A DNA stretch of 64,000 nt from positions 1 to 64,000 of IMG/VR virus record IMGVR_UViG_2841531823_000001; one strand, written 5' to 3'. Below the pieces are notes generated by a model, which was not told the DNA's origin, searched no databases, and saw nothing but the letters and a program-made list of their open reading frames with translations. The position numbers and the translations under genes are program-made. Each line of letters begins with the position of its first letter. The stretch's first letter is position 1. This DNA is from a virus (lineage: Duplodnaviria; Caudoviricetes). Of this stretch, positions 5,983 to 21,009 are shown piece after piece.

Positions 5983-8900
5983 CTACCCGTAGAGGCTTGT
6001 CGCGCCGAAGCGGGCCATGATCTCCCGCTCGAGCTTGTCGTTCAGCCTGATCCCTCCGCCCTCAGCGATGTCCTGTCCGGCCTTGATGCGCGAGCGCAGG
6101 GAGCGGCGGATCGTGTCGCCGGTGATCGCGAATTGCGGGTGCGCTCGATTGAACTCGGCCACCTGATCGAAGGCCTCCCGGCTCGGTCGCTCGCCCGCGC
6201 GCAGGGCCTTGGTGATCTCGTTCAGGATCTCGCGCCGGTCGTCCTCGATCCGCTTCTGGGCGTTCATGCGGCGGTTGTTGATCTCGTAGCGCTCCGAGAC
6301 CTTCGCCGGGCTGAAGCCGAGCGCCTGGGTGATCGCCTGCGCGGGGCTGACATCCTCAAGGATGGTGTCTCCCTTCCTGGTCGTGACGCCTTCGGTCATG
6401 TAGCGGAAGCCCTTCATGGCGTCGCGCACGAACTTCGGTACCGCCGTCTCGACGCCGCGATAGACGTTCCCATCGGCAGCAACACCGATGCCCGTGAAGA
6501 TGCTGGCGCCGATCGCCGGGACCGGGCCGATGACCTGCTCGACCCAATAAGCATAGAGGTCGTCGCCCTCCATTTGCCTGTCCGGTGCCCTGAACCAGAG
6601 TTCCGGCATCCCGAGGCGGCTTGTCAGGTCGATGCCGGTCAGGTGCCCAGGCACGCCCTTGAGGAACAGTCCGGCAATCTCCGGCCCGAAGAGACCGATC
6701 AAGCCCTGCTTGATCTCCTCCTCGACGCCATCGGCGCCATCGTCATCGAACAGACCGAGCAGGGCGGTAATCAGCGCATAGCCCCATGTGCCGGTGATCC
6801 CGGCGTGCAGCATCATAGAGGCCGTGATCCCGATCAGCTGCGTCCGCGCCTCCTTGCGCTCCTCCGCGGTGCGCCCGCGCACCATCTGGTGCATGTCGCG
6901 GAACAGCCGGTAGAGCATGTTGATCTGGAAGTTGCGGAACGTGAAGGCCACCCGGAGCCAGTCCTGTTGCAGCAGCCGCGGCCGCGCATCGGACTCGTAG
7001 TTGAAATGGGTGTCCCATGTCACCCTGCCGGCCGTCTCCACGGCGGCCTCGTGAGACTGCCCCTCGGCGCGGCCGAGCCGATAGGCGGCCAGGAACGTGA
7101 TCTCCCGGTTCATCCGCTCGGTGTGGTGGAACATGAACGCGATCGGCTTCATCAGCCGGGCGCGCAGGTCCGAATACTCTGCCCCGGCCTCCGCAATCCC
7201 GGCGAGGTCGTGGGACTGGCTCTTGTCGATGACGCCGCGGCGGTAGGCCTCGGCCAAGGCCCGTTTCTCGTCGTGCGTGAGGCGCTTGGAGTCGGCAGCA
7301 TGGCCCTTGCCGGAGGCGAAGTCGCGGAGCCCGCGCAGGAGCTCGCGCGTAACCCCCGTGACGTTCGCCCCCTTGAACCGGGCCAACATCACCGGCACGC
7401 CCACGATTGTGGTCTGCGACAGGTTCACCATGGCCGCCGCCGGCGTGGCGCCGAGGTAATAGACGAAGGCCGCCGAGGACGCCCAGGCGCTCCATGCGCT
7501 CGACTTCGGGTTCATCGTGAACTCGTGCCGCCGCAGGATCTCGTTGACCACGAGTTTCGCCCGGTTCGGATCGTCGGTCTTGTCCGCATCCACCTCGGCC
7601 TTCTCGAGCTCGTTGGTCATCTTCATGCCGAAGCGCAGGCGGGCAATCTGGTGGGCGCCGTGGAATGCCTTGACCCCGAAGACGCGGAAGGCGTCGCGTG
7701 TGAAGCCCTCGGTCCCCTTTCGGTGCAGGCGGCTCTTGCGGATCGACAAGTCCGGCATGGTCTCGAGATACCGCTGCCAGATCGCATCCATCAGCGCGTC
7801 ATCCTTGCCGGCGTCGCCCACCAGCTTCTCGATGTCCGCAACGAAGGTCGGGTCGATCATCTCCTTCATCTTGCCGGCGGCGTCGGTCATCACGCCCATC
7901 TGGACACGGGCGCCGGTCTTCTTCTGCTCGGCCGCGAAAGCCTGTTGCTCGCGCTCGCTCTCGAACTTGGAGAAGCTGACCACCTTGCCGTCCGCATCGC
8001 GCACGGTCACGAAGTAGTTGCCGAAGCGCCCGAGCGGGAAGTATGGCCCCTCAATCCGGTTGGACTCGAAGACGGACCGGAGCGCCGAGATCCGGGCCGA
8101 GGCGCCCCAGCCCGCGGAGCGCTTCACCGTCGCAAGGCGCCGCTTGGCCGCGTCCACCGCCTCGTCATATTCGGCACCCTCGAGCCCGTCGTCGCGGATG
8201 CGCTGCATCTCGTCGTCATAGGCCCGCTGCGCCCGCTGCAGGTTGACGCTCATCGCCACCCGCACGTTCTCGAGCACCGCGCGCTCCTCCGCGTCCGCCA
8301 TCTCGCGGTAGAAGTCCCTGACCTCCCGGTAGATGGATTGCAACGGCTCGGGCAGCGCGTCGAACTTCGCCTTCAGGTCCGCATGGGCCTCCTGCCCCGC
8401 CACGATCCGGGCGGCATAGGCCGAGGCGCCCTCGTTCGGCCCGCGCCGGGGCTTCACGAACGGCTTGGACGGGTCCAGCCGCGCGATGGTGGACTCGTGC
8501 ATGAGATCCATCATCGCTTGGTTCTGCTTCTGCCCTTCCTTGCCACGCATGGCCTTGCGCCACCGCTGCGCCACCTCATCGGCCCGGGCCTGCCGCTCGT
8601 TCCGTTCCGCCCCCATGTCGTGCTTCAGGTTCAGGTACGCGCGGATGCTCGGGAGCCGCTTGCCGAGCTCGGCAAGAAGCGGCTCCCCGGGAACCAGCGC
8701 CAGAAGGTTCGCCCGGCCCTTGCCGCCCATGGCGTCGGTGAGGATTTGGGAGATCAGGCCGCGCTCGGCCGCCGCCCCGCGAGGCCGGATCAGATCTGCA
8801 CGGAACTCGTGCCCCGTCAGGCCTTGAGCATTGCCTTGATCTGCGCCAGCGCCGCCGCGGCGTCCTTCCGCAAGGATTCGATCTCGGACGGCTTCAGTCG

Positions 8901-11900
8901 GCTTGAACCGCGCGAGGTATCGGGCTTCGGACTCGGTAAGCGCATCGAACCCGTAGCCCGTGGCGCGAATGAAGTCGGGTTCAATGTCGCCATGCTTGTC
9001 ACGGAGGGCCTGAAGCGTTTCGGGGGACAGTGCCAGTTTGGCGCTATACTGCTTGCCGGTCAAGGCCACAGTGCTGACCACGCGCCCGCCACCGGCCTCG
9101 ATGTGCCCCGCCAGCGAGGCGAAGGTGCCGCCTTGGGTGAGCGTATCGTCCACGACAAGGTAGTCTTGGCCGGCCGACACAGGTCCATCGAACTCAGGAG
9201 CGGCAAAGATCCGGTCCAGCCCCGGGAGCGCGGTGCGCCGCGGGGCGTTGGCCTGAACGATCTCGGCCGCGATATTCAAGCCGAGGCGACTCGCCAGGAC
9301 CCCTGCCGCCGCCAGCGGGATCTTGTTGCGGCCGGCGGCTTCCTCAGAGACGACCGGCACAACGAGGGGCTGGTGGGGGCCGAGTGCTTCCCGCACCCGC
9401 TTTACCAGATCGTCTGTCACCAGGTCGCGCGCAACCCGCACCGCCGCTGCAACATCTCCGGCCTTGGCTGCGGCATAGTCGGGATGGGTGGTGGCGCTGG
9501 CCAGGTCTCCTGCGATGATCGCGGGCCCCAGGCGAAGGGGCGCGCGCATGTCCGCTTCTGCTTCGCGAGACTGCCAGCGTCCATCGGGGCCGCGCGGCTG
9601 CGGGCCGCGCCCGCCTATCTCACCCGCTGCGATCCGCTCCATGGTCAGAGCCGCGCTCTGGAAGCCACGCCCGCGCAGCGCGTTGGCCAGAGCCAGGAAC
9701 AGCGCCTTCACCTTCTGGAAGGCCGCGGCAAGCGCCCCCATGTCGCGCCGGCCCTGCGCCCACTCGCGGTAGAGTTCGGCCACCATCTCCTCGGACCGGC
9801 CCGCGGTGTTCAGATCGGGATAGGCTTCTTCGACGCGCGCCACGATGTCGGCGTCCTTCCGCGCCGCGCGCACCAGCCCCACCCATTCGTCCCGCGTGAA
9901 CAGGCCGTATTCCGCCCCTCCGGCGTTCCCCGGGTCGCGGAGCGCGTGCAGGATCTCGTGATCCAGCGTGCCGCGCCAGTCGCCAGCCCCCACGCGCAGG
10001 CCGATGAAGCCGTTGCGGTAGTGCCCGAAGACGCCGGTGGAGCGCAGCCCGCGCACCGCCGCGGCCGTCACCCGGCGGGAGATGCCGATCTTCCGAAGCT
10101 CGGCCGCGGCCTCGGCCTCGACGCGGTTCAGATCATCGTCCGTGATCTCGCGCGGGTCGACGGGCTCGGCGCCGAAGCGGGAGTCCAGCCCCTCGTCCGG
10201 CGGCAGCAGGTCGTCCACCACCTCCGTTTCCGGCATGTCCGCGAGACGCGAGGCATCGCTCGCGGAAGCAAGCTCGGCGATCACCTCCTTGAGCCGCGTC
10301 TGCTTCTGCTCGTACTCCTCGGCCTTCGCCCAGGGCTTTGCCAGTTCGGCCTCAAGCTCCGGCTTTTCGCGCTGCGCCTTCTCCTTGCCCGCCTCGATGT
10401 TGGCGATGCGGCGGCGAAGGACGGACGGGCGGAAGTGTTCGAGAAGACGGTCAAGCCCCGTCCAGATTGGACCGCGGAGCGCGCCGACCGTGCCCCACAC
10501 CTGCGAGAACTGCACAACCTGCTTCTCATGCACCATGTTCAGGTCGATGGCGGCGCGGACCCCGAGATCCCCGGGCGATGTAACGATGTCGATCTCCATC
10601 GGCAGGCCCTTGAACGCCACGCCATCGATGAAGGCGCTGTCGGCGCCGTTGGCGGTCTGCCGGCGCACCTCGGACTCCAACAGTTCATCCAGCTTGCGCA
10701 CCGCATCTCTGATGTCGATGATCCGCTCGCCGCCGATCTCCATCTCAAAGTCTTCGGTGCCGAACTTGCGCCGGATCTCCTTCTCCAAGGCATCCACGCT
10801 CGTGACCGGCAGGCCCTCAATGTCCAGCTTGAACCGGGCTTTCTCCTTGTCGCCGCGCTGCTCCGCGATCTGCTCGAGACCGAAGTCATAGGCCGCTTGC
10901 GCGCTGTCGAAGGTCTTGCCCTCGATCGTGATGCTGCGCTGCGCCTCGCGCTCCTGCACGCCCGCGAACGCCTCCTCGACCACCGGCAGGTAGCCGCGGA
11001 CAAGCGCGGCATCCGCATCCGCATTCTCGAGCGTGCGGTCGACCTGGCGCAGCTGGGCGCGCAGCCCGTTCACCCGGTTGTTGAAGGAACGGCTCTGCAC
11101 ATCGAGCTTGTTCAGGTCGCCCTGCAGCGTCACCCGCTCCACCATCGGCGGGTTGCCGGTCGCAAGCGCGGCCATCTCCGCCATGTTCGCGGACTCCTCG
11201 TCCTCGAACTCCATGTTGAAGGAGCCGTCGTACTTGCGGATGCCGTTGATCGCCTTCAGCTTGGTCGCGTTCAGCGCCCACATCTTCGCGTCCACGGTCA
11301 TTTCCGTGGCGTAGGCCAGAACCTCGACCTCGAAACCGTCGTGCCCGTATTTCTCGAGGAGCTTGTTGCCCTGCCGCACGATGCGGCCCTCGCGCTGCTC
11401 GATGTCCGAGGGCTTCCACGTCACGTCGACATGGTGCAGCGCCACAAGCCGATCCTGAATGTTGGTCCCAGCGCCCATGCGCGGCGTCGATCCCAGGATC
11501 ACCCGCACGCTCCCGTCACGGACCTGCTTGAACAGGGCTTTCTTGGCCTTGTCGTCCTCGGCCTCCTGAACGAACCGGATCTCGGACTCGGGGATTCCGC
11601 GCTTCGCCAGAAGGCGCTTGATCTCGTCGTAAGCGTTCCAGCCACCCATGACGGCGTTGCGGCGGGCTTCCACGTCCTGCACGTCGAACTTGTCGAGTTC
11701 CTCGACGGCCTTCGCTTCACCGGCTTCGTCGCCCTCTGCCCGCGCCTTCTCGAGCTTCGCCACCCACTCGTCGTATTTGGCGACGAACGCCTCATCGCCC
11801 TTGGCCTTCGGCACGGACCGATCGAGGAAGATCACCTGAGTCCCGCGGTCTTCGGCCTTGTCGCGCCAGATCCGCGCGACGTTATCCACCACGGCCCCGA

Positions 11901-14900
11901 TCTTGCCGCTACCCTCCTCGACGCTGATGCTGGGATCGACGGCGCGGGCGTCCAGCGAGACCTTGCGCGCCCGGTCCATCAGCTTCAGCCGCTCGATGTT
12001 CCGCTCCTTCGGGTTGCGGATGCCGGGCAGGCTGTCGAAGCCGGACACGATGTCCTTCAGGATCGCCCGCTGGGCGGCGTCCGGTTTCACCGCGACCATC
12101 TCCCGATCGCCCTTGCCGGCCTTCTGGGACTTCACCGGCGGCACCGGGAACGGCGCCCCGTCGTTGTCCTCGGCAAAGGCCTTCTTGATGTCATCGAGAG
12201 GAACCGCGTCCGCCACCGAGTAGTAGAGGTCCATCAGGGACCGCATGTTCATCCACTCGCGCCCGAGGCGCGTCACCTCCTTCACGCTGCCGCTTTCGGT
12301 CGGCTCGTAGGCGGAGGCATAGGAGACGAACATCGCGCGCCAGGCGTCGAAGTTGTCGATTCCCATCTCGATCAACTCGTTCGGCGCGAGGTTGCGCAGG
12401 ACCAGATACATCTCGGCGACGGAGTTGCTGATCGGCGTGCCGGTCAGGAAGGCAATCGAGGTGCCTTGCCGGTCGTGCAGGGACCGGGATTTCAGGTGCA
12501 AGTCGATGGCCTTGGCCGAGCCGGTCTTGTTGCCCATCCCCGAGACGCCTTGCAGGCGAGAGGAATAGGACAGGTTCTTGAACTCGTGCGCCTCGTCCAC
12601 CGTCAGGTCGTCAATGCCCATCTCCTCGAAGGAGATCAGCTTGTCGCGGTTCCGCGCCCGGATCTTCGCAAGCCGTTCCTCGAGCTTCGTCACCAGGCGC
12701 TCGGCCTCGGCCACACCGAACGGCTTGCGCTTGCCGAAGGTGACAAAGCCGGCTTCTTCGGCGGCTTCCTCGGCCTCCGCGACCGCATCGCGCGCCGCCT
12801 TCAGTTCAGCCTCGACGTAACGCTCCTCGGTCGACGGATCGAGGTTGATGAAGCCGAAGGAGGAATGGCCGATGATGACGGCATCGTAGTCACCGGCCGC
12901 GATGCGGGCAAACAGGCGGCGCCGGTTCTTCGCCTCGAAGTCGGTCTTGCTGGCCGCCAGCACATTGGCGCCCGGGTAGAGTTGCAGGAAGTCGGACTTC
13001 CATTGCTCGATCAGGTGGTTCGGAACCACGATCAGCGGCTTCCGGGAAAGCCCCATGCGCCGCCGCTCCATCACGCGCGCGATGGCGGTGAAGGTCTTGC
13101 CGGCGCCGACGACGTGATCGTAGAGCACCGTGCGGTCGGTGATCCCGCGCCAGATCGCGTTGAGCTGGTGGCGCCGCATCTTGATCGCGGGATTCTTGCC
13201 CGGAAGCTGAAGGTGGCTGCCGTCCCGCTGCCGGATCAGGCGCGTGTTGAACTTCTCGTTGAAGATGTCGACCAGCTGCTCGCGCCGATCATCGGACTGG
13301 AAAGCCCAATCGAGGAACTCGTTGAAGATTTCCGTGCCCTTGATCTGGCTTTCGGCCGTGGCCTCCTCATCGACGTGGGTTTTCCCCTCGGAATCCCTGT
13401 ACGTCACCTTGAGCGGCGCGCTGTTCAGAAGGCGCTCGACAATCTCGGCCGGGCTCAATGCCCGGTCCGATGTCGCCCATTGTGAAGCAGGATTGCCGTC
13501 CGTCTGCACACCGAACAGGTTGCTGACCGGCTGGAATACCACCGCAGAGCGGCTGTAGCCCAGGTGCTTCAGGAAGTCGGAATAGACCTGCGGCGGGATC
13601 CACGTCGATCCGAGGTTCGGCGTGATGTCGCCCGCCTCCCATCGCGGCGGCTGCACGGCTTCCAGCGCCTTGATGTTGGCTTCGAGCCCGGCGGCGATGG
13701 CCGCGTTCAGCTTCCGGCGCACGAGGCCCGACAGGTAGAGGTCGGCCGGCTCCCAGCGCCCGGTTTCCGGGTCGAAGAACGCCCGCGGGTTCTCGCCCGC
13801 ACTCAACGCCTTCTCCGCCCCGGCCTGATCCGTGCCGAGCAGCTGGGCGATGCGCTCGAGGTCAATCTCCCCGCGCTCGGACAGCGAGACGGCGACGGCC
13901 TCAGACGCATCCTTGGCCGCGGTGATCGGGGCGTGGGGCATTGTCACGCGGCGAGACATGATGGCCGCCTTCTGCGGCTTGCCATCGACAATCTCCTCGG
14001 CGCCGAGCGCAAGAGCGCCGTCCGGCATCGTCAGTAGCATCCGGGCGGTGCTGGCCTTGGTGAGCGGGCCGTGAGCCTTCACGAACGTATCGTAGGCGGC
14101 GTTCAGTTTCTCCCGGTTCCGCTCGATCTGCTTCTCGGTGCCATCCTGCACTTCCAGCACGAACTGGCGCTTCATCAGGTCGCGGATCGGCAGCGCATCC
14201 CGCAGCATGGCGATGCGGTTCTTGCCCCAGCGGCTCGCCGCCGGAACATCGGCTTGATCGACCGTGCGGATGATCTTCTGGTTGCGCGTCGAAAGGGTGC
14301 CGTCAGCCTTGCGGACCTTGACCGGCTTGCCCTTCTCGTCCAGCACATCCTCCTGGATCTGCCACTTCCCGTCCCCGGCATAGGTGTAGTCCGGGCTGAA
14401 CGGGGTGTCGGCGGTCAACTCGATCTCGGTCAGGAGCGGGCGGCCGTCGCCCGTGTCCATCTCGACCACTGTCTTCAGCGTGTCGTTCTCGTCGACGCGC
14501 ACGCCGCCCGGCTCCGCGCCGGCAACCGCGAGGCGCATCGCCTCGGCCATGCGGGAGAAGCTGGCTGATGTACGCTCGGCCACCGCATCACGCGGGGCGC
14601 GCTCGCGGATGCCCGCGATGGCCTCTTTCAGTTTTGCCCCGAACTCTGCCGGGTTCTCCATCGTCACGTTCAGGTCGGCGCGGCCGTTCATCGTGCCGCT
14701 CGCGTCGATCTTCCCGATGACGGCGCGCGGGTTGCGCATGAAGTAGTCGTTGACGCTGATCTCCGCCCCGCTGCCGGCCGGGTCCGTGACCTTGCCGGAC
14801 AAGACCCAGCGCGCGAGGCTGTCGCGCAGGCTGGTGGCCTTCGACACGAGGGCAGGGTCGAGCTTGTCGTTTGCGAGAATGGCTGCGCCGTCGATCCCCA

Positions 14901-17900
14901 GGGACCGGGCGGCGAGATCCGCGGCCTCGGCCTGATCTTCAGTCCAGCGCCGGAAGAACAGGATGTCCGTGACCACCTCAGTCCGCGCGTTCTCCATGAA
15001 GGCGTTGCTCGGAAGCCGGATGGCGGCCTCGAGGTTGGCGAGCCGCGCCATGTCCACCCGGTTCTTCGGGTCCAGCGCATCCATGAGGTTGTGCGTGACC
15101 ACCATCGCCAGCAGGCCGTCAGGCGCCAGCGCCTTGAGCGAGGCGAGGAAGAACTGATTGTGGATCGTGCGGCCGTTCACGTCCGGCTGGTAGCGGAAGA
15201 ACAGGCGGTCGCGGCCGAAGGGCGGGTTGCCGATCGCAAGGGCAAAGCGGCCATCGGGCAGCGGCACCTTCTCGAAGCCGGAGTGCAGCACCTCATGCCC
15301 CGGGTAGAGCAGCTTGGCGATCCGCGCCGTGATGGAGTCGTACTCCACGGCGAGCACCTGGCTCTTGCCGCGCAGGGACTCGGGCATCAGGCCAAGGAAG
15401 TTGCCGGCGCCAACGGACGGCTCGAGGACCGCGCCGCCGGTGAAGCCGAGACGCTGCACGCCCTGCCAGACCGCATCGACCACCGTCCGGCTGGTGTAGT
15501 GGGCGGCTTTGGTGGAGTTGCGCGCGACCTTGATCTCGGACGGGTCCAGAAGCTCCTCGAGTTCGGAGACGCGCTTCTCCCATCCCTTGGCGATGCCCTC
15601 ACCATCGCCCGATCCGGCGACGCGGAAGGCGTTTTTCAGGCCGCCCCAGCCGACGTAGCGGGCGAGGATCGCCTGCTCGTCCGGCGTGGCCCGCCGGTTC
15701 TCGCCCTCGATCTGCTTTAGAAGGCGGATCGCCGCCACGTTGTCGGCATACTTCTGCCCCTCGGTGCCTTCGCCCAGGCGCAGCGCATCCGTGATGGTGA
15801 AGTTGACGGCCGGGATGTTGACCTTGCCGGCCTTGGCCTTCTCGGTTTCCGCGCCCTGCTCACCAACCTTGTCGGAATCGGCCGCGGTGTCCGAGACGCG
15901 GGCACGCTTGCGCCCGCCCTTCGGCTTCTTCTCCCCTACGGGTTTTCGGGTGGCAGCAGAATTTCCTCGGGGAGCACGAGTTCTTCCGCCTCGTGCTTCT
16001 GCATCCCCTTCTGCATCAGCGCGGCCACCTGCTCCGCTGCCCTCCGGCTCGCTCCCTGCGCCTCCGCGTTCAGCGACCCGTCCTTCTCCATCGCCCGGTA
16101 CATCGTCGGGAGATGCTCCTTCCAGTGCTTCAGCGCCATCCCGGCGTACTGCGTCCCCAGCATCTTCGGCCTCGCTTGTGGGTGCCTCATCCATGGTAGC
16201 ATCGGACTCGGTCTTTTTCGAGGCCGCCGCGCGCATCTTACGCACTTCGCGGATCACCTCCTCCGCGCTGTCCATGTCAGCCACGTCCTCGCCCGCCAGT
16301 TCCATGTCGTCGCGGATCTGGTTGTAGGCGTTGCGGGCGTAGGGCTGCGCCTGCTCGAGCGTGAGCCCCATCCTGTCGATCATGGTGTCGATCAGGGCGC
16401 GGAACCGCCGCGTGCCGCTCTTGACGTAGAGCGAGCCGATCTTGAACGCGACGGCGACCATCTGCGGGTCCAGGCCGCTGTTCACCTGGTTCTTGAGCAT
16501 CGCGAGGAACTCGGCCTCGAGCGCCGCGAGTTCGGCGTTCTCGGCCTCGGTCAGCCCTTTCAGCCCTTTCGGCTTGGAGGCGGCAGGCTGCGCAGCAGCT
16601 TTCGGCTTCTTCGGCGCCGGCTTCGGCTTCTCAGGGTCGGCCGCCACCGGCGCCGGGTTCTGTGCAGCCTCGCGCTTCTTCACCGGCTCGGTGGGCTTGG
16701 TCAGGTCGCCGGAGGCGAGCCAGTTCTTGAAGCCCTCAACGCTGGTCGCAGTGAAGCTGCCGATCCGCTGCCGGCCCTTGCCGTCCGAGAAACCGGCCTC
16801 GTAGATCCCCAGCGCGGCCGAGGTGGAGCCGGTTCCGAGGATGACCTTGTGCTCATCCCATTTCCCGGTTTCGGCATCCACCTGATTGACGATCAACACG
16901 AAATCGGAATCCGGCATGTCGCCCATATAGAAGTCGACATGATCGCCGTCCGCGCCCTCGGTGCGCAGAATCCGGCCGTAGTGCGCCGGCATCTTGACCG
17001 ACCATGCCGTTTTCCCGTCCGGCGTGGTCTTGCTACGGATCGAGCCCTTGGCGTTCTCGATCGAGAGCGTGAGGCCATTCCACGGCGCCTTGCCGGTCCG
17101 GTAGTTCTCGGCTTCCTTCTGGGCCTCGGTCGGGTTCGGATCCGTCTCGGCCGCGGCGGCGTCGATCTCCTCGCGGGTCGGGACGGCAGGCTTGCCGCCG
17201 CGCACCACGCCCACGCGGGCGAATGCCGCCTCCGCCTCAGCGATCCCTCCGTTCCCGAGGAAGGTTGCCCCGTGGAACGGGTTGTATTCGTCCCTGAACA
17301 CCGGGGCGATTTTGTCCAGATCGGCATCAGACAGCGAGCCGAGCCAGTCGGCATATTCGGCAACATCGGGGAAGATCCCCGTCCGCATGTCCTCGAGGCT
17401 GTTGTCGGGCTGGCCCATCACCCTCTTGAACAGGGCGAGCCCCCTGTTCTCGCGCCAGCTTTCCGCGGGGGCCTTAACGGACGTCTCGGCATAGCCAGCC
17501 AGCCACTCGGCCCCAAGATCCTCGCCGAACCAAGCAGGGGGCTTCCGAGGCTCGCCATCGCGGGCGGCCGCAGCGCCGGCTTCGCGAGCCTTGCGCTTCT
17601 TCTCCTCATGGCGGGCATCGGCGACCGGCACGGTTTCCGGCGCCGGGCTTTCCCCCGCCGCCGGCTGTTCTTGCTTCGGCTGGGCTACTTCCTCCCGCCC
17701 CTGCCGCCCTTCTTGCATCCCTTGGCCACTGGCCGTCTCCTTCTGCTGAGGTTGAGGTTGAGGTTGGGGGGTGTCGACCCTGGGCTCGACAGGGGGGGCG
17801 GCCTTGGCCTCGGCCAGTCCCATCGCCTGCTCCACGGCCGGCCGATGCTTGCGCGAGAAGATGAACCCGCGCTCGCGCTCATCCCATTTCAGCGACACGC

Positions 17901-20900
17901 CGGGCACGGCCGGGGGCGCATCCTTCGGCACGCCGCGCAGGACCGCGGCCTTGGAGCGGATGTCGGTGATCGAGGGGGCGGGGGCCTCAGCGGTCAAGGA
18001 TTCCTTGACAGGCGCCGGCGCTGCCTCCGCTTGGGAGAGGGAGGCGCGCTTCTCGGTCATGAATCTGTTGTACGCGCCCATGTAGACGCTATCAGCCGCG
18101 CGCGCGACCACGCGGCCGCCACGCTTCTCGATATATCGCCTTTCCGCCTCTTTGGCGTAGGCGTGGGCCTCCGGGTCTACTTCACCGGCAGGCATCGCGT
18201 CGCCCTCCGCTTGGGAGGGCGCCGGGAGGGTAGAGGGAGGAGCGGCGGGAGGAAGGGCCAGAGCCGGCTTCGGAGCCTCGATGGTCCCGGCATTGCGGAT
18301 CGTGCCTGCACGGTAGAGCCGGCCGTAGGCGTCGGTCAGCGCGCGGCGGCCGTTTTCGGACATGCCACCCCAAGTCATCGCCTTGCGGTGCTCGCGCTCG
18401 GCCGCTGGTCCGGCTTCGCGCAGGATCGCCTTGCGGGTGTCGGCATCGGCTGCATCCCACCACGGCGCGGTCCGCGGCACCGGGGGCGGCTGAAGGTCGA
18501 CCCCCACGGATGCGGCGGCATCCTTGCGGGCGCGGGCGTCTTCTTCGGGCGTGATGATCTCGCCCGTCAATGCCGGCGCAGGCTTGGTGCCTGCAGCTGC
18601 ACCATCCATATTGCCCGCAGGAGCATCGTCAGGCGCGATCCCGGCGGAAGCGGGTGAGGCTTCTTCAGGAACCGCTTGATCTTGCGCGCGTCCTTCTTCG
18701 ACAGTGCCCCGATCCTGCGCAGGAACTTCACCGACTCGTGCGCCGTCAGGCAGAACGGCAGCGCCGTCAGCCTCGGGTCCGACAGGTCCAGTTGCAGGTG
18801 CAGTTGCTGTTTCACCGGCGGCCTCCTCCTGAATCGTGCCCGCCTGATCGGCGGTCGGCACGGCCACGAAACCGCCGTCCTTCGGCTCGATCCGGTAGGC
18901 CGCCGGGTCGCGGCCCTGGTTCTCGACGGCGCGGCGGGCCTGCGCCTCGCTCTTGAAAGGGGTGCCGTCCTTCTTCGCGATGACGGCGGGCCGGATCTTC
19001 GACGCCTCCTGTGCCGCCGCATTGTCGGCCAGCATGTCGGCGTCGGCGACGGCCTTCAGTTGATCGTGGATGCCGCGCAGGCGGGCGTCCCAGCCGCGGG
19101 CGCGGGCTTGGTCCTCGATGATCGCGATCCGCTTCCGCGCCTCATCCGGCGTGAGGTCGGAGAAGTCCCCGGTGGCGCGGGCCGGCGGCTCGGCTAGGGC
19201 CGGCGCGGGCGGCATGGGCCCGGGCCCCTGCGGCTTTGGCTCCGGCGCAGCGGCGGCCGGCGGGTCTTCCGGCTTCGCCTTGCCGGTCTTGATGACCGGC
19301 TGCTCGCCCTCGCGGATCGTCGCCGGGCGCTCGAGCTCGGGACCGGGTTCGGTGGTTGGGGCCAAGCTGATGGAGACCTGCCCCGCGTCGAACTCCGAGC
19401 GCGGGATCTCGAGCACCTCGCCGTCGCTGGTCGTTACGGCGACGGCCATAGGCGATTGCGCAGTCAGGGTGCCGCCGATCGGGTTGCCATCCGGGGTCCA
19501 GACGCGAACGGCCGCGCCCGGCTGCACGCCGGGCAGGATCTCGCCGGGCGACAGGTTGGCCGCGGCGCGCATGGCCGGAGTGGGCGCGGGCGCTGGCGCG
19601 GCAGGCGCCGAGGGATTGGCCGGGGCGGGGGCCTGAGCGGCCATGCCGGCGTTGAGCGCGGTGCGGAGCGTGCCACCGGGCCGGAACTGCGCGGGCTGTT
19701 GCGTCGGGTCGCCCGCGCGATAGTCGCCGGGCTGGCGCTCGAATGCCGCGGGATCGCGGGTCGGGCCCGCGCCGAAGATGGTGCCGCCCGCCTCGGGCGC
19801 CGGGAGCGCGAGGGTCTGTTGCTCCGCCTCGGGGCGCGGAGGCTCCTCGACGTTCACCTCCGGCTCGTGCCGGCCCATCGCGCCAGCCACGCCGCCCACT
19901 GTGCCACCGACGATACCGGCGGCGACGCCGACCTCGAGATATTCGCGGCGGGCGTCCTCATCCCAGAGCGGCAGACCAGCTTGCGCCCGCTCGATCACGG
20001 ATTGACCGATCTCCGTCGGAACCTCGACCATCCCGCCCATTGCGGCGCCGCCGGCGGCCCGGCCGAGGATCTTCATCCCGGCCTTCTCGGCCACCTCACG
20101 CGGCACAGCGCGGGTGAAGATGCCGGTCAGGCCCTTCGCGGCAGGCTTGAGCGCGAGACCGCCAATCAGCATGTCACCGAAGGTATCAAGCGCCGCCTGC
20201 GGGGCGGAGGCAACGATAGCCTTGAGCTCGTCCACTCCCTCGGACGGATGCGCCTCCTTCTGGCGCTCCCGGTTCATGCCGTAGAAGAAGGGCAGGTTGG
20301 CGAGCGTGCCGCCGATCATGCCGCCCACGGCGCCGGCCGCGGTCCCGAGCCCAGGCAGTACCGCAGTGCCGATGGCCGCGCCGGTGGCTGCGGCGCCGAG
20401 CGAAACGCCCAGCTGCGGCACCTGTTGGGCCAGAGTCTCCCCAACGAACTTTGCCCCCGAGCCGACACCATCGACATCCTCGAGGCGCGTCATCCCTGCG
20501 CTTGCGTCCTCGATCTCCTGCCGGTTCCGGTCGGCCACTCCCGCGCCATATTCCGCCAGCCCATCGAGCCCGGTTGACCGGCCCACGCCCTCGATGGCCG
20601 AGCCAGTCGCCTGCTGAAGCTGGTCGATGCCCACGCCCACGGCGGCCCCGAGGCCGCCCTCCTTGGGCGGCTGCGCAGCCTTCAGCTTCGCCATCTGCTT
20701 CGGATACAGGGCCTCGCCGATCTCGCGCGCCCGGGTCATGAAGGCGTCAGCCTTGTCGCCCGCCGTCTCGCGGATCAGGGACTTGATGTCCTCTCCGGCC
20801 TGAATGCGCGGGCCGAGCTCGGCCGCGGCCTGCTCTGCGATGGCAAGCGCCTCGTCGGCCGTCTTCGCGCCGCCGGTCTCGGCCAGCGCAATGAGCACGT

Positions 20901-21009
20901 TCGCGGGAACCTTCGTCTTGCGCGCAATGCCTTCGACGCTCTGCCGCGCCGTCGATCCGCCCCCCTGCTTCGCGTCGTTCTGGGTCTCGAACATGAAGAG
21001 CGGGTTCAT
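5983..21009 (-). CDS. giant DarB-like polyvalent virion protein (5008 aa): InPase-like, N6-adenine MTase, SNF2 helicase, zincin peptidase, PRTase, PLxRFG and C-terminal LPD-type domains
   Basis: HYGRILRTEGADGDHVD..DEHKVILG; LEPSVGAG and GNPPF; VGAGKT, DEAH, QREGRIVRQGN; HEILH; VVDDTLTQGGT; YFPLGRFG. Confidence 0.92.
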   Translation of the reverse strand: MNPLFMFETQNDAKQGGGSTARQSVEGIARKTKVPANVLIALAETGGAKTADEALAIAEQAAAELGPRIQAGEDIKSLIRETAGDKADAFMTRAREIGEALYPKQMAKLKAAQPPKEGGLGAAVGVGIDQLQQATGSAIEGVGRSTGLDGLAEYGAGVADRNRQEIEDASAGMTRLEDVDGVGSGAKFVGETLAQQVPQLGVSLGAAATGAAIGTAVLPGLGTAAGAVGGMIGGTLANLPFFYGMNRERQKEAHPSEGVDELKAIVASAPQAALDTFGDMLIGGLALKPAAKGLTGIFTRAVPREVAEKAGMKILGRAAGGAAMGGMVEVPTEIGQSVIERAQAGLPLWDEDARREYLEVGVAAGIVGGTVGGVAGAMGRHEPEVNVEEPPRPEAEQQTLALPAPEAGGTIFGAGPTRDPAAFERQPGDYRAGDPTQQPAQFRPGGTLRTALNAGMAAQAPAPANPSAPAAPAPAPTPAMRAAANLSPGEILPGVQPGAAVRVWTPDGNPIGGTLTAQSPMAVAVTTSDGEVLEIPRSEFDAGQVSISLAPTTEPGPELERPATIREGEQPVIKTGKAKPEDPPAAAAPEPKPQGPGPMPPAPALAEPPARATGDFSDLTPDEARKRIAIIEDQARARGWDARLRGIHDQLKAVADADMLADNAAAQEASKIRPAVIAKKDGTPFKSEAQARRAVENQGRDPAAYRIEPKDGGFVAVPTADQAGTIQEEAAGETATAPATGPVGPEADGAAVLPDGARVGEVPAQDRGTVEEGRAQDQAVPEEASPASAGIAPDDAPAGNMDGAAAGTKPAPALTGEIITPEEDARARKDAAASVGVDLQPPPVPRTAPWWDAADADTRKAILREAGPAAEREHRKAMTWGGMSENGRRALTDAYGRLYRAGTIRNAGTIEAPKPALALPPAAPPSTLPAPSQAEGDAMPAGEVDPEAHAYAKEAERRYIEKRGGRVVARAADSVYMGAYNRFMTEKRASLSQAEAAPAPVKESLTAEAPAPSITDIRSKAAVLRGVPKDAPPAVPGVSLKWDERERGFIFSRKHRPAVEQAMGLAEAKAAPPVEPRVDTPQPQPQPQQKETASGQGMQEGRQGREEVAQPKQEQPAAGESPAPETVPVADARHEEKKRKAREAGAAAARDGEPRKPPAWFGEDLGAEWLAGYAETSVKAPAESWRENRGLALFKRVMGQPDNSLEDMRTGIFPDVAEYADWLGSLSDADLDKIAPVFRDEYNPFHGATFLGNGGIAEAEAAFARVGVVRGGKPAVPTREEIDAAAAETDPNPTEAQKEAENYRTGKAPWNGLTLSIENAKGSIRSKTTPDGKTAWSVKMPAHYGRILRTEGADGDHVDFYMGDMPDSDFVLIVNQVDAETGKWDEHKVILGTGSTSAALGIYEAGFSDGKGRQRIGSFTATSVEGFKNWLASGDLTKPTEPVKKREAAQNPAPVAADPEKPKPAPKKPKAAAQPAASKPKGLKGLTEAENAELAALEAEFLAMLKNQVNSGLDPQMVAVAFKIGSLYVKSGTRRFRALIDTMIDRMGLTLEQAQPYARNAYNQIRDDMELAGEDVADMDSAEEVIREVRKMRAAASKKTESDATMDEAPTSEAEDAGDAVRRDGAEALEGASPDDVPGDGEGRVAERGGAGSEPEGSGAGGRADAEGDAEARGGRTRAPRGNSAATRKPVGEKKPKGGRKRARVSDTAADSDKVGEQGAETEKAKAGKVNIPAVNFTITDALRLGEGTEGQKYADNVAAIRLLKQIEGENRRATPDEQAILARYVGWGGLKNAFRVAGSGDGEGIAKGWEKRVSELEELLDPSEIKVARNSTKAAHYTSRTVVDAVWQGVQRLGFTGGAVLEPSVGAGNFLGLMPESLRGKSQVLAVEYDSITARIAKLLYPGHEVLHSGFEKVPLPDGRFALAIGNPPFGRDRLFFRYQPDVNGRTIHNQFFLASLKALAPDGLLAMVVTHNLMDALDPKNRVDMARLANLEAAIRLPSNAFMENARTEVVTDILFFRRWTEDQAEAADLAARSLGIDGAAILANDKLDPALVSKATSLRDSLARWVLSGKVTDPAGSGAEISVNDYFMRNPRAVIGKIDASGTMNGRADLNVTMENPAEFGAKLKEAIAGIRERAPRDAVAERTSASFSRMAEAMRLAVAGAEPGGVRVDENDTLKTVVEMDTGDGRPLLTEIELTADTPFSPDYTYAGDGKWQIQEDVLDEKGKPVKVRKADGTLSTRNQKIIRTVDQADVPAASRWGKNRIAMLRDALPIRDLMKRQFVLEVQDGTEKQIERNREKLNAAYDTFVKAHGPLTKASTARMLLTMPDGALALGAEEIVDGKPQKAAIMSRRVTMPHAPITAAKDASEAVAVSLSERGEIDLERIAQLLGTDQAGAEKALSAGENPRAFFDPETGRWEPADLYLSGLVRRKLNAAIAAGLEANIKALEAVQPPRWEAGDITPNLGSTWIPPQVYSDFLKHLGYSRSAVVFQPVSNLFGVQTDGNPASQWATSDRALSPAEIVERLLNSAPLKVTYRDSEGKTHVDEEATAESQIKGTEIFNEFLDWAFQSDDRREQLVDIFNEKFNTRLIRQRDGSHLQLPGKNPAIKMRRHQLNAIWRGITDRTVLYDHVVGAGKTFTAIARVMERRRMGLSRKPLIVVPNHLIEQWKSDFLQLYPGANVLAASKTDFEAKNRRRLFARIAAGDYDAVIIGHSSFGFINLDPSTEERYVEAELKAARDAVAEAEEAAEEAGFVTFGKRKPFGVAEAERLVTKLEERLAKIRARNRDKLISFEEMGIDDLTVDEAHEFKNLSYSSRLQGVSGMGNKTGSAKAIDLHLKSRSLHDRQGTSIAFLTGTPISNSVAEMYLVLRNLAPNELIEMGIDNFDAWRAMFVSYASAYEPTESGSVKEVTRLGREWMNMRSLMDLYYSVADAVPLDDIKKAFAEDNDGAPFPVPPVKSQKAGKGDREMVAVKPDAAQRAILKDIVSGFDSLPGIRNPKERNIERLKLMDRARKVSLDARAVDPSISVEEGSGKIGAVVDNVARIWRDKAEDRGTQVIFLDRSVPKAKGDEAFVAKYDEWVAKLEKARAEGDEAGEAKAVEELDKFDVQDVEARRNAVMGGWNAYDEIKRLLAKRGIPESEIRFVQEAEDDKAKKALFKQVRDGSVRVILGSTPRMGAGTNIQDRLVALHHVDVTWKPSDIEQREGRIVRQGNKLLEKYGHDGFEVEVLAYATEMTVDAKMWALNATKLKAINGIRKYDGSFNMEFEDEESANMAEMAALATGNPPMVERVTLQGDLNKLDVQSRSFNNRVNGLRAQLRQVDRTLENADADAALVRGYLPVVEEAFAGVQEREAQRSITIEGKTFDSAQAAYDFGLEQIAEQRGDKEKARFKLDIEGLPVTSVDALEKEIRRKFGTEDFEMEIGGERIIDIRDAVRKLDELLESEVRRQTANGADSAFIDGVAFKGLPMEIDIVTSPGDLGVRAAIDLNMVHEKQVVQFSQVWGTVGALRGPIWTGLDRLLEHFRPSVLRRRIANIEAGKEKAQREKPELEAELAKPWAKAEEYEQKQTRLKEVIAELASASDASRLADMPETEVVDDLLPPDEGLDSRFGAEPVDPREITDDDLNRVEAEAAAELRKIGISRRVTAAAVRGLRSTGVFGHYRNGFIGLRVGAGDWRGTLDHEILHALRDPGNAGGAEYGLFTRDEWVGLVRAARKDADIVARVEEAYPDLNTAGRSEEMVAELYREWAQGRRDMGALAAAFQKVKALFLALANALRGRGFQSAALTMERIAAGEIGGRGPQPRGPDGRWQSREAEADMRAPLRLGPAIIAGDLASATTHPDYAAAKAGDVAAAVRVARDLVTDDLVKRVREALGPHQPLVVPVVSEEAAGRNKIPLAAAGVLASRLGLNIAAEIVQANAPRRTALPGLDRIFAAPEFDGPVSAGQDYLVVDDTLTQGGTFASLAGHIEAGGGRVVSTVALTGKQYSAKLALSPETLQALRDKHGDIEPDFIRATGYGFDALTESEARYLARFKPTEAVRDRILAEGRRGGAGADQGNAQGLTGHEFRADLIRPRGAAAERGLISQILTDAMGGKGRANLLALVPGEPLLAELGKRLPSIRAYLNLKHDMGAERNERQARADEVAQRWRKAMRGKEGQKQNQAMMDLMHESTIARLDPSKPFVKPRRGPNEGASAYAARIVAGQEAHADLKAKFDALPEPLQSIYREVRDFYREMADAEERAVLENVRVAMSVNLQRAQRAYDDEMQRIRDDGLEGAEYDEAVDAAKRRLATVKRSAGWGASARISALRSVFESNRIEGPYFPLGRFGNYFVTVRDADGKVVSFSKFESEREQQAFAAEQKKTGARVQMGVMTDAAGKMKEMIDPTFVADIEKLVGDAGKDDALMDAIWQRYLETMPDLSIRKSRLHRKGTEGFTRDAFRVFGVKAFHGAHQIARLRFGMKMTNELEKAEVDADKTDDPNRAKLVVNEILRRHEFTMNPKSSAWSAWASSAAFVYYLGATPAAAMVNLSQTTIVGVPVMLARFKGANVTGVTRELLRGLRDFASGKGHAADSKRLTHDEKRALAEAYRRGVIDKSQSHDLAGIAEAGAEYSDLRARLMKPIAFMFHHTERMNREITFLAAYRLGRAEGQSHEAAVETAGRVTWDTHFNYESDARPRLLQQDWLRVAFTFRNFQINMLYRLFRDMHQMVRGRTAEERKEARTQLIGITASMMLHAGITGTWGYALITALLGLFDDDGADGVEEEIKQGLIGLFGPEIAGLFLKGVPGHLTGIDLTSRLGMPELWFRAPDRQMEGDDLYAYWVEQVIGPVPAIGASIFTGIGVAADGNVYRGVETAVPKFVRDAMKGFRYMTEGVTTRKGDTILEDVSPAQAITQALGFSPAKVSERYEINNRRMNAQKRIEDDRREILNEITKALRAGERPSREAFDQVAEFNRAHPQFAITGDTIRRSLRSRIKAGQDIAEGGGIRLNDKLEREIMARFGATSLYG
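8817..8945 (-). CDS. nested +1-frame small ORF overlapping the end of the PRTase domain (start uncertain)
   Basis: C-terminal LKPSEIESLRKDAAAALAQIKAMLKA amphipathic helix uses GC3-rich codons; no clear RBS. Confidence 0.45.
   Translation of the reverse strand: MRLPSPKPDTSRGSSRLKPSEIESLRKDAAAALAQIKAMLKA
15936..16163 (-). CDS. nested +1-frame gene, TnpV-like small helical protein (75 aa)
   Basis: GAGG-6nt-ATG; strong GC3 bias; YAGMALKHWKEHLPTMY..EAEELVLPEEILLPPE resembles the TnpV pattern. Confidence 0.75.
   Translation of the reverse strand: MLGTQYAGMALKHWKEHLPTMYRAMEKDGSLNAEAQGASRRAAEQVAALMQKGMQKHEAEELVLPEEILLPPENP
16193..16221 (-). promoter_or_regulatory. putative internal sigma70 promoter for the nested TnpV-like gene
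   Basis: TCGAAA-17nt-TACCAT with extended -10 TG. Confidence 0.45.
17685..17729 (-). CDS. nested +1-frame micro-ORF MAKGCKKGGRGGRK (14 aa)
   Basis: AAGGAG-7nt-GTG preceded by unstructured (CAACCT)n. Confidence 0.45.
   Translation of the reverse strand: MAKGCKKGGRGGRK
18567..18815 (-). CDS. nested +1-frame gene, basic 82-aa protein
   Basis: AGGAGGAGG-6nt-GTG; codons CTG/AAG/TTC/GAC/ATC typical of host while main frame turns A/T-ending and low-complexity. Confidence 0.75.
   Translation of the reverse strand: MKQQLHLQLDLSDPRLTALPFCLTAHESVKFLRRIGALSKKDARKIKRFLKKPHPLPPGSRLTMLLRAIWMVQLQAPSLRRH

Follow-up and report, generated by a model that had tools for sequence, protein, structure and literature searches.

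We analyzed a 64,000-nucleotide stretch of tailed-phage DNA (Caudoviricetes; hereafter the window), which derives from an IMG/VR provirus record of 96,355 bases (IMGVR_UViG_2841531823_000001) and in which a small open reading frame (ORF) for a TnpV-like protein lies within the giant gene of a DarB-like polyvalent virion protein, on the same strand and in the +1 frame (Table 1). The small ORF begins with a minus-strand ATG at 16163 and ends with a TAG at 15936-15938, which gives 75 codons in both the sequence and its translation, and its offset from the start of the giant ORF (21009 - 16163 = 4846 = 3k+1) places it in the +1 frame. The nested ATG straddles the main-frame codons GAT and GCT. A first-pass annotation of this DNA had proposed the same ORF and start together with a ribosome-binding site, GAGG at 16170-16173, and all of these are present. 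It had also placed the ORF directly before a methylase-helicase; the ORF does adjoin the methylase region, but there is no separate methylase-helicase gene at this position, and the ORF lies wholly inside the 5,008-codon ORF at 5983-21009, which holds the methylase and the helicase domains alike. The ORF listing contains a longer form of the nested ORF, of 88 amino acids (aa), with its ATG at 16202; this ATG is not conserved among relatives, and a search of viral contigs for close relatives of the 88-aa form gave 34 pattern matches, none of which was confirmed.

The giant protein shows Pfam matches to InPase, an Eco57I-type N6-methylase (weak, E = 0.022), SNF2-rel_dom, ResIII, Helicase_C and LPD39, and it contains a phosphoribosyltransferase-like stretch too. 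An N6-adenine methylase is followed by an SNF2/SF2 helicase in one polypeptide, the arrangement of a DarB-like methylase-helicase polyvalent protein. In a tblastn search the methylase region matched P1 darB and 124 phage records, and the neighbours of the giant gene on the same strand are virion-structural genes. Over the nested ORF the main frame encodes a linker composed of 22% Gly, 20% Ala, 13% Arg, 11% Asp and 11% Glu, and this linker terminates just before the conserved start of the methylase module. The InPase domain (that of polyvalent-protein pyrophosphatases, E = 1e-44) is encoded in the main frame upstream of the overlap, and the phosphoribosyltransferase-like stretch and LPD39 are encoded far downstream of it.

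Table 1. Coordinates in the window of the nested gene, its start signals and the features of the giant gene around it
Feature	Position	Strand	Description
Nested gene	15936..16163	-	75 sense codons and a TAG stop; predicted acidic four-helix TnpV-like protein; +1 frame of the giant gene
Shine-Dalgarno motif GAGG	16170..16173	-	6 nucleotides before the nested ATG; kept in the window's own clade
Promoter-like site TCGAAA-17-TACCAT	16193..16221	-	Predicted; TG before the -10 hexamer; weak, 8/12 matches
Host (giant) gene	5983..21009	-	5,008 codons; DarB-like polyvalent virion protein; from the ORF listing, Pfam and homology
Low-complexity linker, main frame	15811..16224	-	Overlies the nested gene; from translation and composition
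Start of the methylase module, main frame	14896..15828	-	After the nested stop; segment used as probe alignment A3
InPase domain, main frame	16165..17301	-	
ORF antisense to the giant gene	6133..13485	+	2,450 codons

Stop-to-stop runs of up to 174 codons occur elsewhere in the giant gene in the +1 frame, and the window DNA is 67% G+C, so the length of the nested ORF alone is not beyond chance. ORF length was therefore dropped as evidence for the nested gene, comparable +1 runs being found elsewhere in giant genes; what is beyond chance is its homology, its conservation and its start signals. A 2,450-codon ORF also runs antisense to the giant gene, and we take it to be a by-product of the 67% G+C content and codon bias and not a gene.

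To avoid selecting on the nested ORF itself, we probed viral contigs with the N-terminal region of the methylase only (alignment A3) and examined the best 80 of 510 confirmed loci. A TnpV-like ORF (E <= 1e-3) was found in 78 of the 80 loci, and each of the 78 ORFs lies within an open main frame, on its strand and at +1 to it, with 0-627 nucleotides (nt) between the end of the nested ORF and the methylase match. The two other methylase-selected loci (L144 and L160) gave no TnpV-like match. The closest relatives of the window, whose methylases are 65-72% identical, encode 'MLGLQYTG.ALRHW...' from an ATG at the same place, with a Shine-Dalgarno (SD) motif before it. Moreover, a tblastn search of phages with the nested protein found a 31%-identical match within the DarB-like gene of Erwinia phage PEp14, where a +1-frame ORF carries GAGG and ATG and a +1-frame stop lies two codons upstream. 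The PEp14 ORF, used as a query in turn, gave 21 records (12 phages, of Erwinia, Klebsiella, Pseudomonas, Agrobacterium, Ochrobactrum, Vibrio, Sinorhizobium and Microcystis), each under a giant gene.

Similarly, annotated coordinates give the +1 offset in all eight GenBank phages that have a giant coding sequence (CDS) on the same strand (PEp14, Pavtok, Stean, SopranoGao, Atu_ph08, POI1126, VvAW1 and Mwe-JY07). A profile of 11 nested proteins led to 42 viral loci; in every one of them the nested ORF is covered by an open main frame, which in 40 extends over the whole locus of about 5 kb. The nested ORF is annotated in none of the 10 distinct phage GenBank records examined, and where the small ORF bears a name in protein collections it is 'hypothetical protein'; a tblastn search of plasmids with the nested protein gave no match. 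The same layout is seen in phages of Pseudomonadota and cyanobacteria, in prophages from several phyla and in conjugative elements of Clostridia, well over a hundred elements altogether; these loci are related by descent and their counts are not independent events, although the sequences have diverged to about 50% identity.

In Pseudomonas phage Itty13 (L006, MW460249.1) two annotated CDSs are opposite in strand to the open giant frame and the nested ORF; both open frames are present, and the record looks mis-annotated. One clade (L015, L016, L018, L029-L032, L040, L043, L044 and phage PBC5) has an extra main-frame segment of about 150-190 aa between the nested stop and the methylase start, a distance of 525-627 nt there versus 0-186 nt elsewhere.

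Selection was examined in both frames. Among 47 distinct sequences, the nested frame has a mean pairwise aa identity of 0.504, compared with 0.360 for the main frame and 0.367 for the third frame, which contains stops in all 47. Column identity at nested codon positions 1, 2 and 3 is 0.652, 0.648 and 0.531, respectively, and the lowest value at the third position shows that the nested wobble position is the free one. In the window's clade (seven sequences), the median ratio of nonsynonymous to synonymous substitution rates (dN/dS, NG86 method) is 0.34 for the nested frame (19 pairs) versus 1.35 for the main frame (21 pairs), although this estimate is biased in overlapping frames and shows only which frame dominates. 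It is also evident from the comparison of PEp14 with Pavtok that differences at main-frame codon positions 1, 2 and 3, which number 9, 8 and 102 in the downstream flank, number 16, 10 and 11 in the overlap; the other two pairs among the three Erwinia phages are alike. By these measures the nested frame is the constrained one, under purifying selection.

The main frame was tested by random synonymous recoding of each nested ORF in 131 distinct segments. The main frame survives such recoding open in a median of 3% of trials per locus, and 124 of the 131 segments have an open main frame versus 9.2 expected; the seven with a closed main frame are stand-alone genes in bacterial genomes. Together with the constraint on the nested frame, this excess shows that both frames are maintained.

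The start signals are likewise conserved. The start codon (ATG; GTG in four loci) lies 12 codons before a near-invariant HW in most loci, with a range of 10-16 codons. An SD-like motif (GGAG, GAGG or AGGA at -16 to -5) is found in 42 of 47 distinct loci, versus 203 of 3,229 other ATGs (6.3%), and in three of the five loci without the motif an ATG 2-3 codons upstream has it. Furthermore, a +1-frame stop stands 2-6 codons upstream of the conserved ATG in several clades and many loci, which argues against entry by frameshifting because it leaves no room for a shift site.

A programmed frameshift from the giant frame would yield a truncated N-terminal product ending in the TnpV-like domain, and phage PBC5 (L007, AF448724.1) shows that such a fusion can exist: its upstream modules run in frame into the TnpV-like segment as orf33 of 2,185 aa, and its methylase is a separate orf23. 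PBC5 orf33 seeds the family phrog_938 (2,185 columns, labelled 'endolysin'), which is why the C-terminal columns of that family match the nested protein. However, when PBC5 is aligned with four relatives, a single-base gap appears about 75 nt upstream of the nested ATG (locus position 1501), and the PBC5 exception therefore comes down to a mutation, or to an error in a single old record. When 1.84 billion representatives were searched with a profile, 1,564 clusters were found at E <= 1e-3, 595 of them at E <= 1e-10; the best 150 of the 1,564 relatives are 73-376 aa long and none is giant, and a search limited to longer proteins (211-2,000 aa) found only three relatives, of 211-312 aa. The nested domain is thus hardly ever encoded in the frame of the giant protein, and with the ATG and the SD motif conserved as well, the frameshift explanation appears very improbable.

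Still less credible is that the ORF is a dead relic (an in-frame domain knocked out of frame) or a chance product of high G+C content. Long alternative-frame ORFs are indeed common at this locus, as the antisense ORF and the +1 runs described above show, but neither a relic nor a chance ORF would be expected to carry the purifying selection on the nested frame and the conserved start and SD motif. The ORF is also found in low-G+C relatives (42-47% G+C), its product has a confidently predicted fold (see below), and it has the 595 database clusters at the stricter threshold.

The first-pass annotation had further assigned to the nested gene a promoter of its own. The hexamers (TCGAAA at 16221-16216 and TACCAT at 16198-16193), the 17-nt spacer and the TG are all there, but only 8 of 12 positions match the consensus, below the threshold of 9/12 at which a promoter scan of 14000-18500 returned no site. 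Seven sites of the same quality occur on the sense strand of the giant gene, and only the proposed one has the TG extension. Across relatives, sigma-70-like sites (>= 8/12) ending 5-120 nt upstream of the nested start were found in 46 of 104 distinct loci. The number expected is 12.0 on locus-wide density and 21.0 when the same 150 nt are shuffled, and A/T-rich sequence before start codons could add to the enrichment. These upstream sites are concentrated 10-29 nt before the ATG and include strong ones, e.g. TTGACA-16-TATAAA. An active internal promoter in the window is conceivable from these patterns, if somewhat doubtful.

The AlphaFold2 model of the nested protein, built from 29 sequences, consists of four helices, with a predicted local distance difference test score of 92.5 and a predicted template modelling score of 0.77. 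The PF14198 profile bears out the resemblance to TnpV that was first noticed by eye: the 88-aa form scores 25.7 bits (E = 1.2e-5) and the 75-aa form 23.3 bits (E = 6.4e-5), both just under the curated Pfam gathering cut-off of 27 bits; the match is not full-length, covering only profile positions 10-81 (or 25-81) of 111. Since the scores are under the Pfam threshold, we file the protein as TnpV-like, that is, a superfamily-level relative and not a member of the Pfam family. PF14198 is matched at E <= 0.01 by 16 of the 29 nested homologues, and one nested relative in an Eubacteriales genome (G002/L057) scores 39.1 bits, above the cut-off. All 29 nested proteins are acidic, with isoelectric points of 4.3-6.05 (5.53 for that of the window).

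Among solved structures, the best match to the model is 2apl (PG0816 of Porphyromonas gingivalis), with a VIA Z of 8.0 and a root-mean-square deviation of 2.1 Å over 68 of 75 residues; it is the top of 48,161 chains, the next having a Z of 6.2, and with a small helical model a common arrangement can be enough to give a Z of 8. Foldseek gave 2apl a probability of 0.82 and E = 1.8 and found no match at E <= 0.001 in the PDB, and a profile search of PDB sequences returned designed helical repeat proteins only. There was one real match in BFVD, Q8W6J4_2 (E = 1e-4, TMq 0.95), which is presumably the C-terminus of PBC5 orf33. The ESM Atlas gave small hypothetical proteins with scores of 0.86-0.88, including one cluster with TnpV on 11% of its members, and these serve as leads only.

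Some stand-alone copies lie near integrases, which would agree with a role as a recombination directionality factor (Xis-like) such as was once suggested for TnpV of Tn4451. Yet the predicted fold is all-helical with four helices, no Xis or excisionase appears among the 50 best structural matches or among the Pfam matches, and the nested copies lie in virion-structural or transfer genes and not beside recombinases, so that an Xis-like role is very improbable.

We also looked at relatives in other contexts. Canonical TnpV is found in 56 of 150 genomes of the class Clostridia. Among 20 canonical Clostridia TnpV genes sampled with their flanks, seven (L182, L183, L185, L186, L187, L190 and L193, each with SD motif and ATG) lie inside a DarB-like open frame of 1,900-2,990 codons, on the same strand and all at 3k+1. 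The main frame over these seven genes is rich in Gly, Arg, Asp, Glu and Ser. They come after an N-terminal domain of some 270 aa that is conserved, contains 'FDEQLLI.AQRPDATAV' and matches no Pfam family; an ArdC-N-like label given to this domain by eye was dropped, no Pfam match being found at E <= 1.

In Bacteroidota a comparable position is taken by DUF1896. Among 41 Bacteroidota and 121 Bacteroidales genomes, DUF1896 occurs at five places in five genomes, and in all four testable Bacteroidota loci it stands directly upstream of a DarB-like methylase-helicase ORF on the same strand (profile A4, E = 1e-91 to 1e-99). The methylase-helicase ORFs behind DUF1896 in L166, L167, L169 and L170 have 1,668-1,860 codons, and the large gene of L167 is broken into several frames.

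Homologous loci were found 31 times in bacterial genomes of many phyla, and 14 of them are nested within main-frame ORFs that exceed 2,000 codons. One locus (L054) overlaps a methylase-helicase ORF of 1,142 codons that is not fused upstream, and in L054 and L024 the overlap is kept though the methylase-helicase ORF is unfused to upstream modules. Three stand-alone nested-type genes (L061, L062 and L075) have a -1 frame that is open for nearly the exact length of the gene and may have outlived giant genes that were lost; the protein of L062 is closely similar to copies nested in the giant ORFs L042, L046 and L066. In Burkholderia phage Bcep22 (gp75; L172, locus 2537-2947) a +1 open stretch of 137 codons lies just before the methylase, under a main-frame linker rich in Gly, Arg and Asp. 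This +1 ORF matches the nested profile at E = 1.3e-3 and TnpV at E = 0.044, and it is probably a divergent nested copy.

Taken together, these results suggest that the ORF is very probably a genuine dual-coding nested gene in the +1 frame of a 15-kb DarB-like polyvalent anti-restriction gene. Ribosomes translating the giant gene would read the overlap as a flexible linker, rich in Gly, Ala, Arg, Asp and Glu, that joins the N-terminal modules to the methylase-helicase, and ribosomes starting at the internal SD motif and ATG would read it as a 75-residue acidic four-helix protein. Initiation would take place on the long late mRNA and possibly also on a short internal transcript. The linker may have been overprinted on an older nested frame when the methylase-helicase gene was extended or fused upstream; the nested frame is probably the older because stand-alone and adjacent forms of the TnpV family exist.

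Several points weigh against this interpretation. A search for RNA runs found one metatranscriptome with 5% of the sampled words and nothing else usable. P1 darB, the DarB archetype, has no nested TnpV-like ORF, and at the profile level no link between the nested family and DUF1896 emerges, with no PF08989 match among 29 members and an hhalign probability of 0.2%. To these should be added the score of the window protein below the TnpV cut-off, the shared descent of the loci, the bias of dN/dS in overlapping frames and the common helical arrangement that could underlie the match to 2apl.

As to function, we tentatively propose a partner role for the small protein: expressed together with the giant protein in the producing or donor cell, it would act as a chaperone, as an adaptor for packaging or transfer, or as a brake that holds the methylase-helicase in check until delivery. 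A partner role would explain why the small gene never leaves the methylase-helicase locus. The step to a dedicated partner has its own difficulties. Thirteen of the 20 sampled canonical TnpV genes have no DarB-like gene within about 10 kb, and about 16 of the 31 bacterial-genome homologues lie outside a giant methylase-helicase ORF, the main frame being closed over the match in seven. The neighbours of the non-nested copies, where scanned, are islands with BREX, HsdM, an Eco57I-type methylase, an integrase or DUF3987. These stand-alone copies imply that the family can work without the methylase-helicase.

The same observations favor a different explanation, in which the nested protein is an autonomous mobile-element factor, for example for anti-defence or establishment and with host targets, that hitch-hikes in the giant gene for co-expression. 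Stand-alone homologues are common, both canonical TnpV genes without a DarB-like gene nearby and bacterial copies beside BREX, restriction-modification, integrase or primase-type genes; the uniform acidity of the 29 proteins would be in keeping with it, and L062 looks like a nested-type copy that survives without a giant gene. On the other side, the position at the edge of the methylase module is fixed in all 78 loci, DUF1896 shows a parallel synteny in Bacteroidota, and no known anti-defence family was matched. We regard the autonomous factor as rather unlikely, and as somewhat less favored than the co-expressed partner. In its widest form, the partner proposal would make the TnpV-family genes an ancient gene within polyvalent anti-restriction genes, kept in the +1 frame since before the lineages split, on which the inter-domain linker of the injected or transferred giant protein was overprinted in phages, prophages and conjugative elements from several bacterial phyla, with a product that is an obligatory partner of the methylase-helicase (chaperone, packaging or transfer adaptor, or safety catch) and with DUF1896 as its un-nested form; this generalization is speculative, and unlikely to hold in full.

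To our knowledge, bacteria and their viruses have few long, conserved genes that overlap on one strand, and the cases proposed are mostly young and of narrow distribution. Nesting of genes is not in itself new; what is unusual here is the depth of conservation and the fact that the embedded frame is the constrained one. The gene is maintained by selection on two frames across well over a hundred diverged elements. The TnpV family gains a genomic home, inside or beside DarB-like methylase-helicase genes, and with it a role, open to testing, in the delivery of anti-restriction enzymes by phages and plasmids. The locus may also serve as an example of two genes fusing across a third without destroying the third. 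Engineering or deleting the 'linkers' of these giant genes would affect the hidden gene as well, for which gene callers should allow.

The nested gene and its host can be compared with several known systems. P1 darB is homologous to the methylase region of the host gene (29.6% identity over query residues 108-309, E = 6e-16), but it has 2,255 codons and its own promoter. The first-pass annotation had likened the small gene to P1 ulx. This analogy fails: ulx lies downstream of darB and not upstream, the hhalign probability of Ulx against the nested family is 0.25%, there is no Pfam family for Ulx, and such an ORF is missing from P1 darB. The suggested tie to the methylase-helicase nevertheless holds as tight linkage, in the 78 of 80 viral loci and in the four DUF1896 loci, whereas the identity as a Ulx-like helper does not.

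TnpV (PF14198) is a small protein of Tn4451-type transposons and Firmicute conjugative elements. The window protein shares with it an N-terminal motif, HWKEHLP..Y here versus YLKEH.P..Y in the family, and a C-terminal AEE.VL; unlike canonical TnpV, it is shorter and without the middle insertion that is present in L024 and canonical TnpV. DUF1896 resembles the nested gene in standing directly upstream of a DarB-like methylase-helicase gene, and the best structural match, 2apl, is presumably a DUF1896 member, the name DUF1896 for PF08989 being the part confirmed in our analysis. Unlike the nested gene, the DUF1896 gene is separate, non-overlapping and about twice as long.

The giant protein itself resembles the polyvalent proteins of phages and conjugative elements (Iyer et al. 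2017, PMC5512222), in which many effector domains, including a methylase-helicase dyad, are joined in one polypeptide; a search of passages of that paper for the words 'TnpV', 'overlapping', 'frameshift' and 'linker' gave no match. A description of the nested layout was not found in the open-access literature of PubMed Central and bioRxiv.

The closest parallel in gene arrangement is the pair of spanin genes Rz and Rz1 of phage lambda, in which Rz1 is wholly embedded in the +1 frame of Rz. As with Rz1, the smaller gene is contained in full in a longer phage gene that runs on the same strand, and its frame is +1; the nested ORF is entirely covered by an open main frame and, at the sequence level, has start signals of its own. 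Unlike Rz/Rz1, the host gene here is 15 kb long, the overlap is limited to an inter-domain linker, and the constraint lies in the nested frame and not in the host frame.

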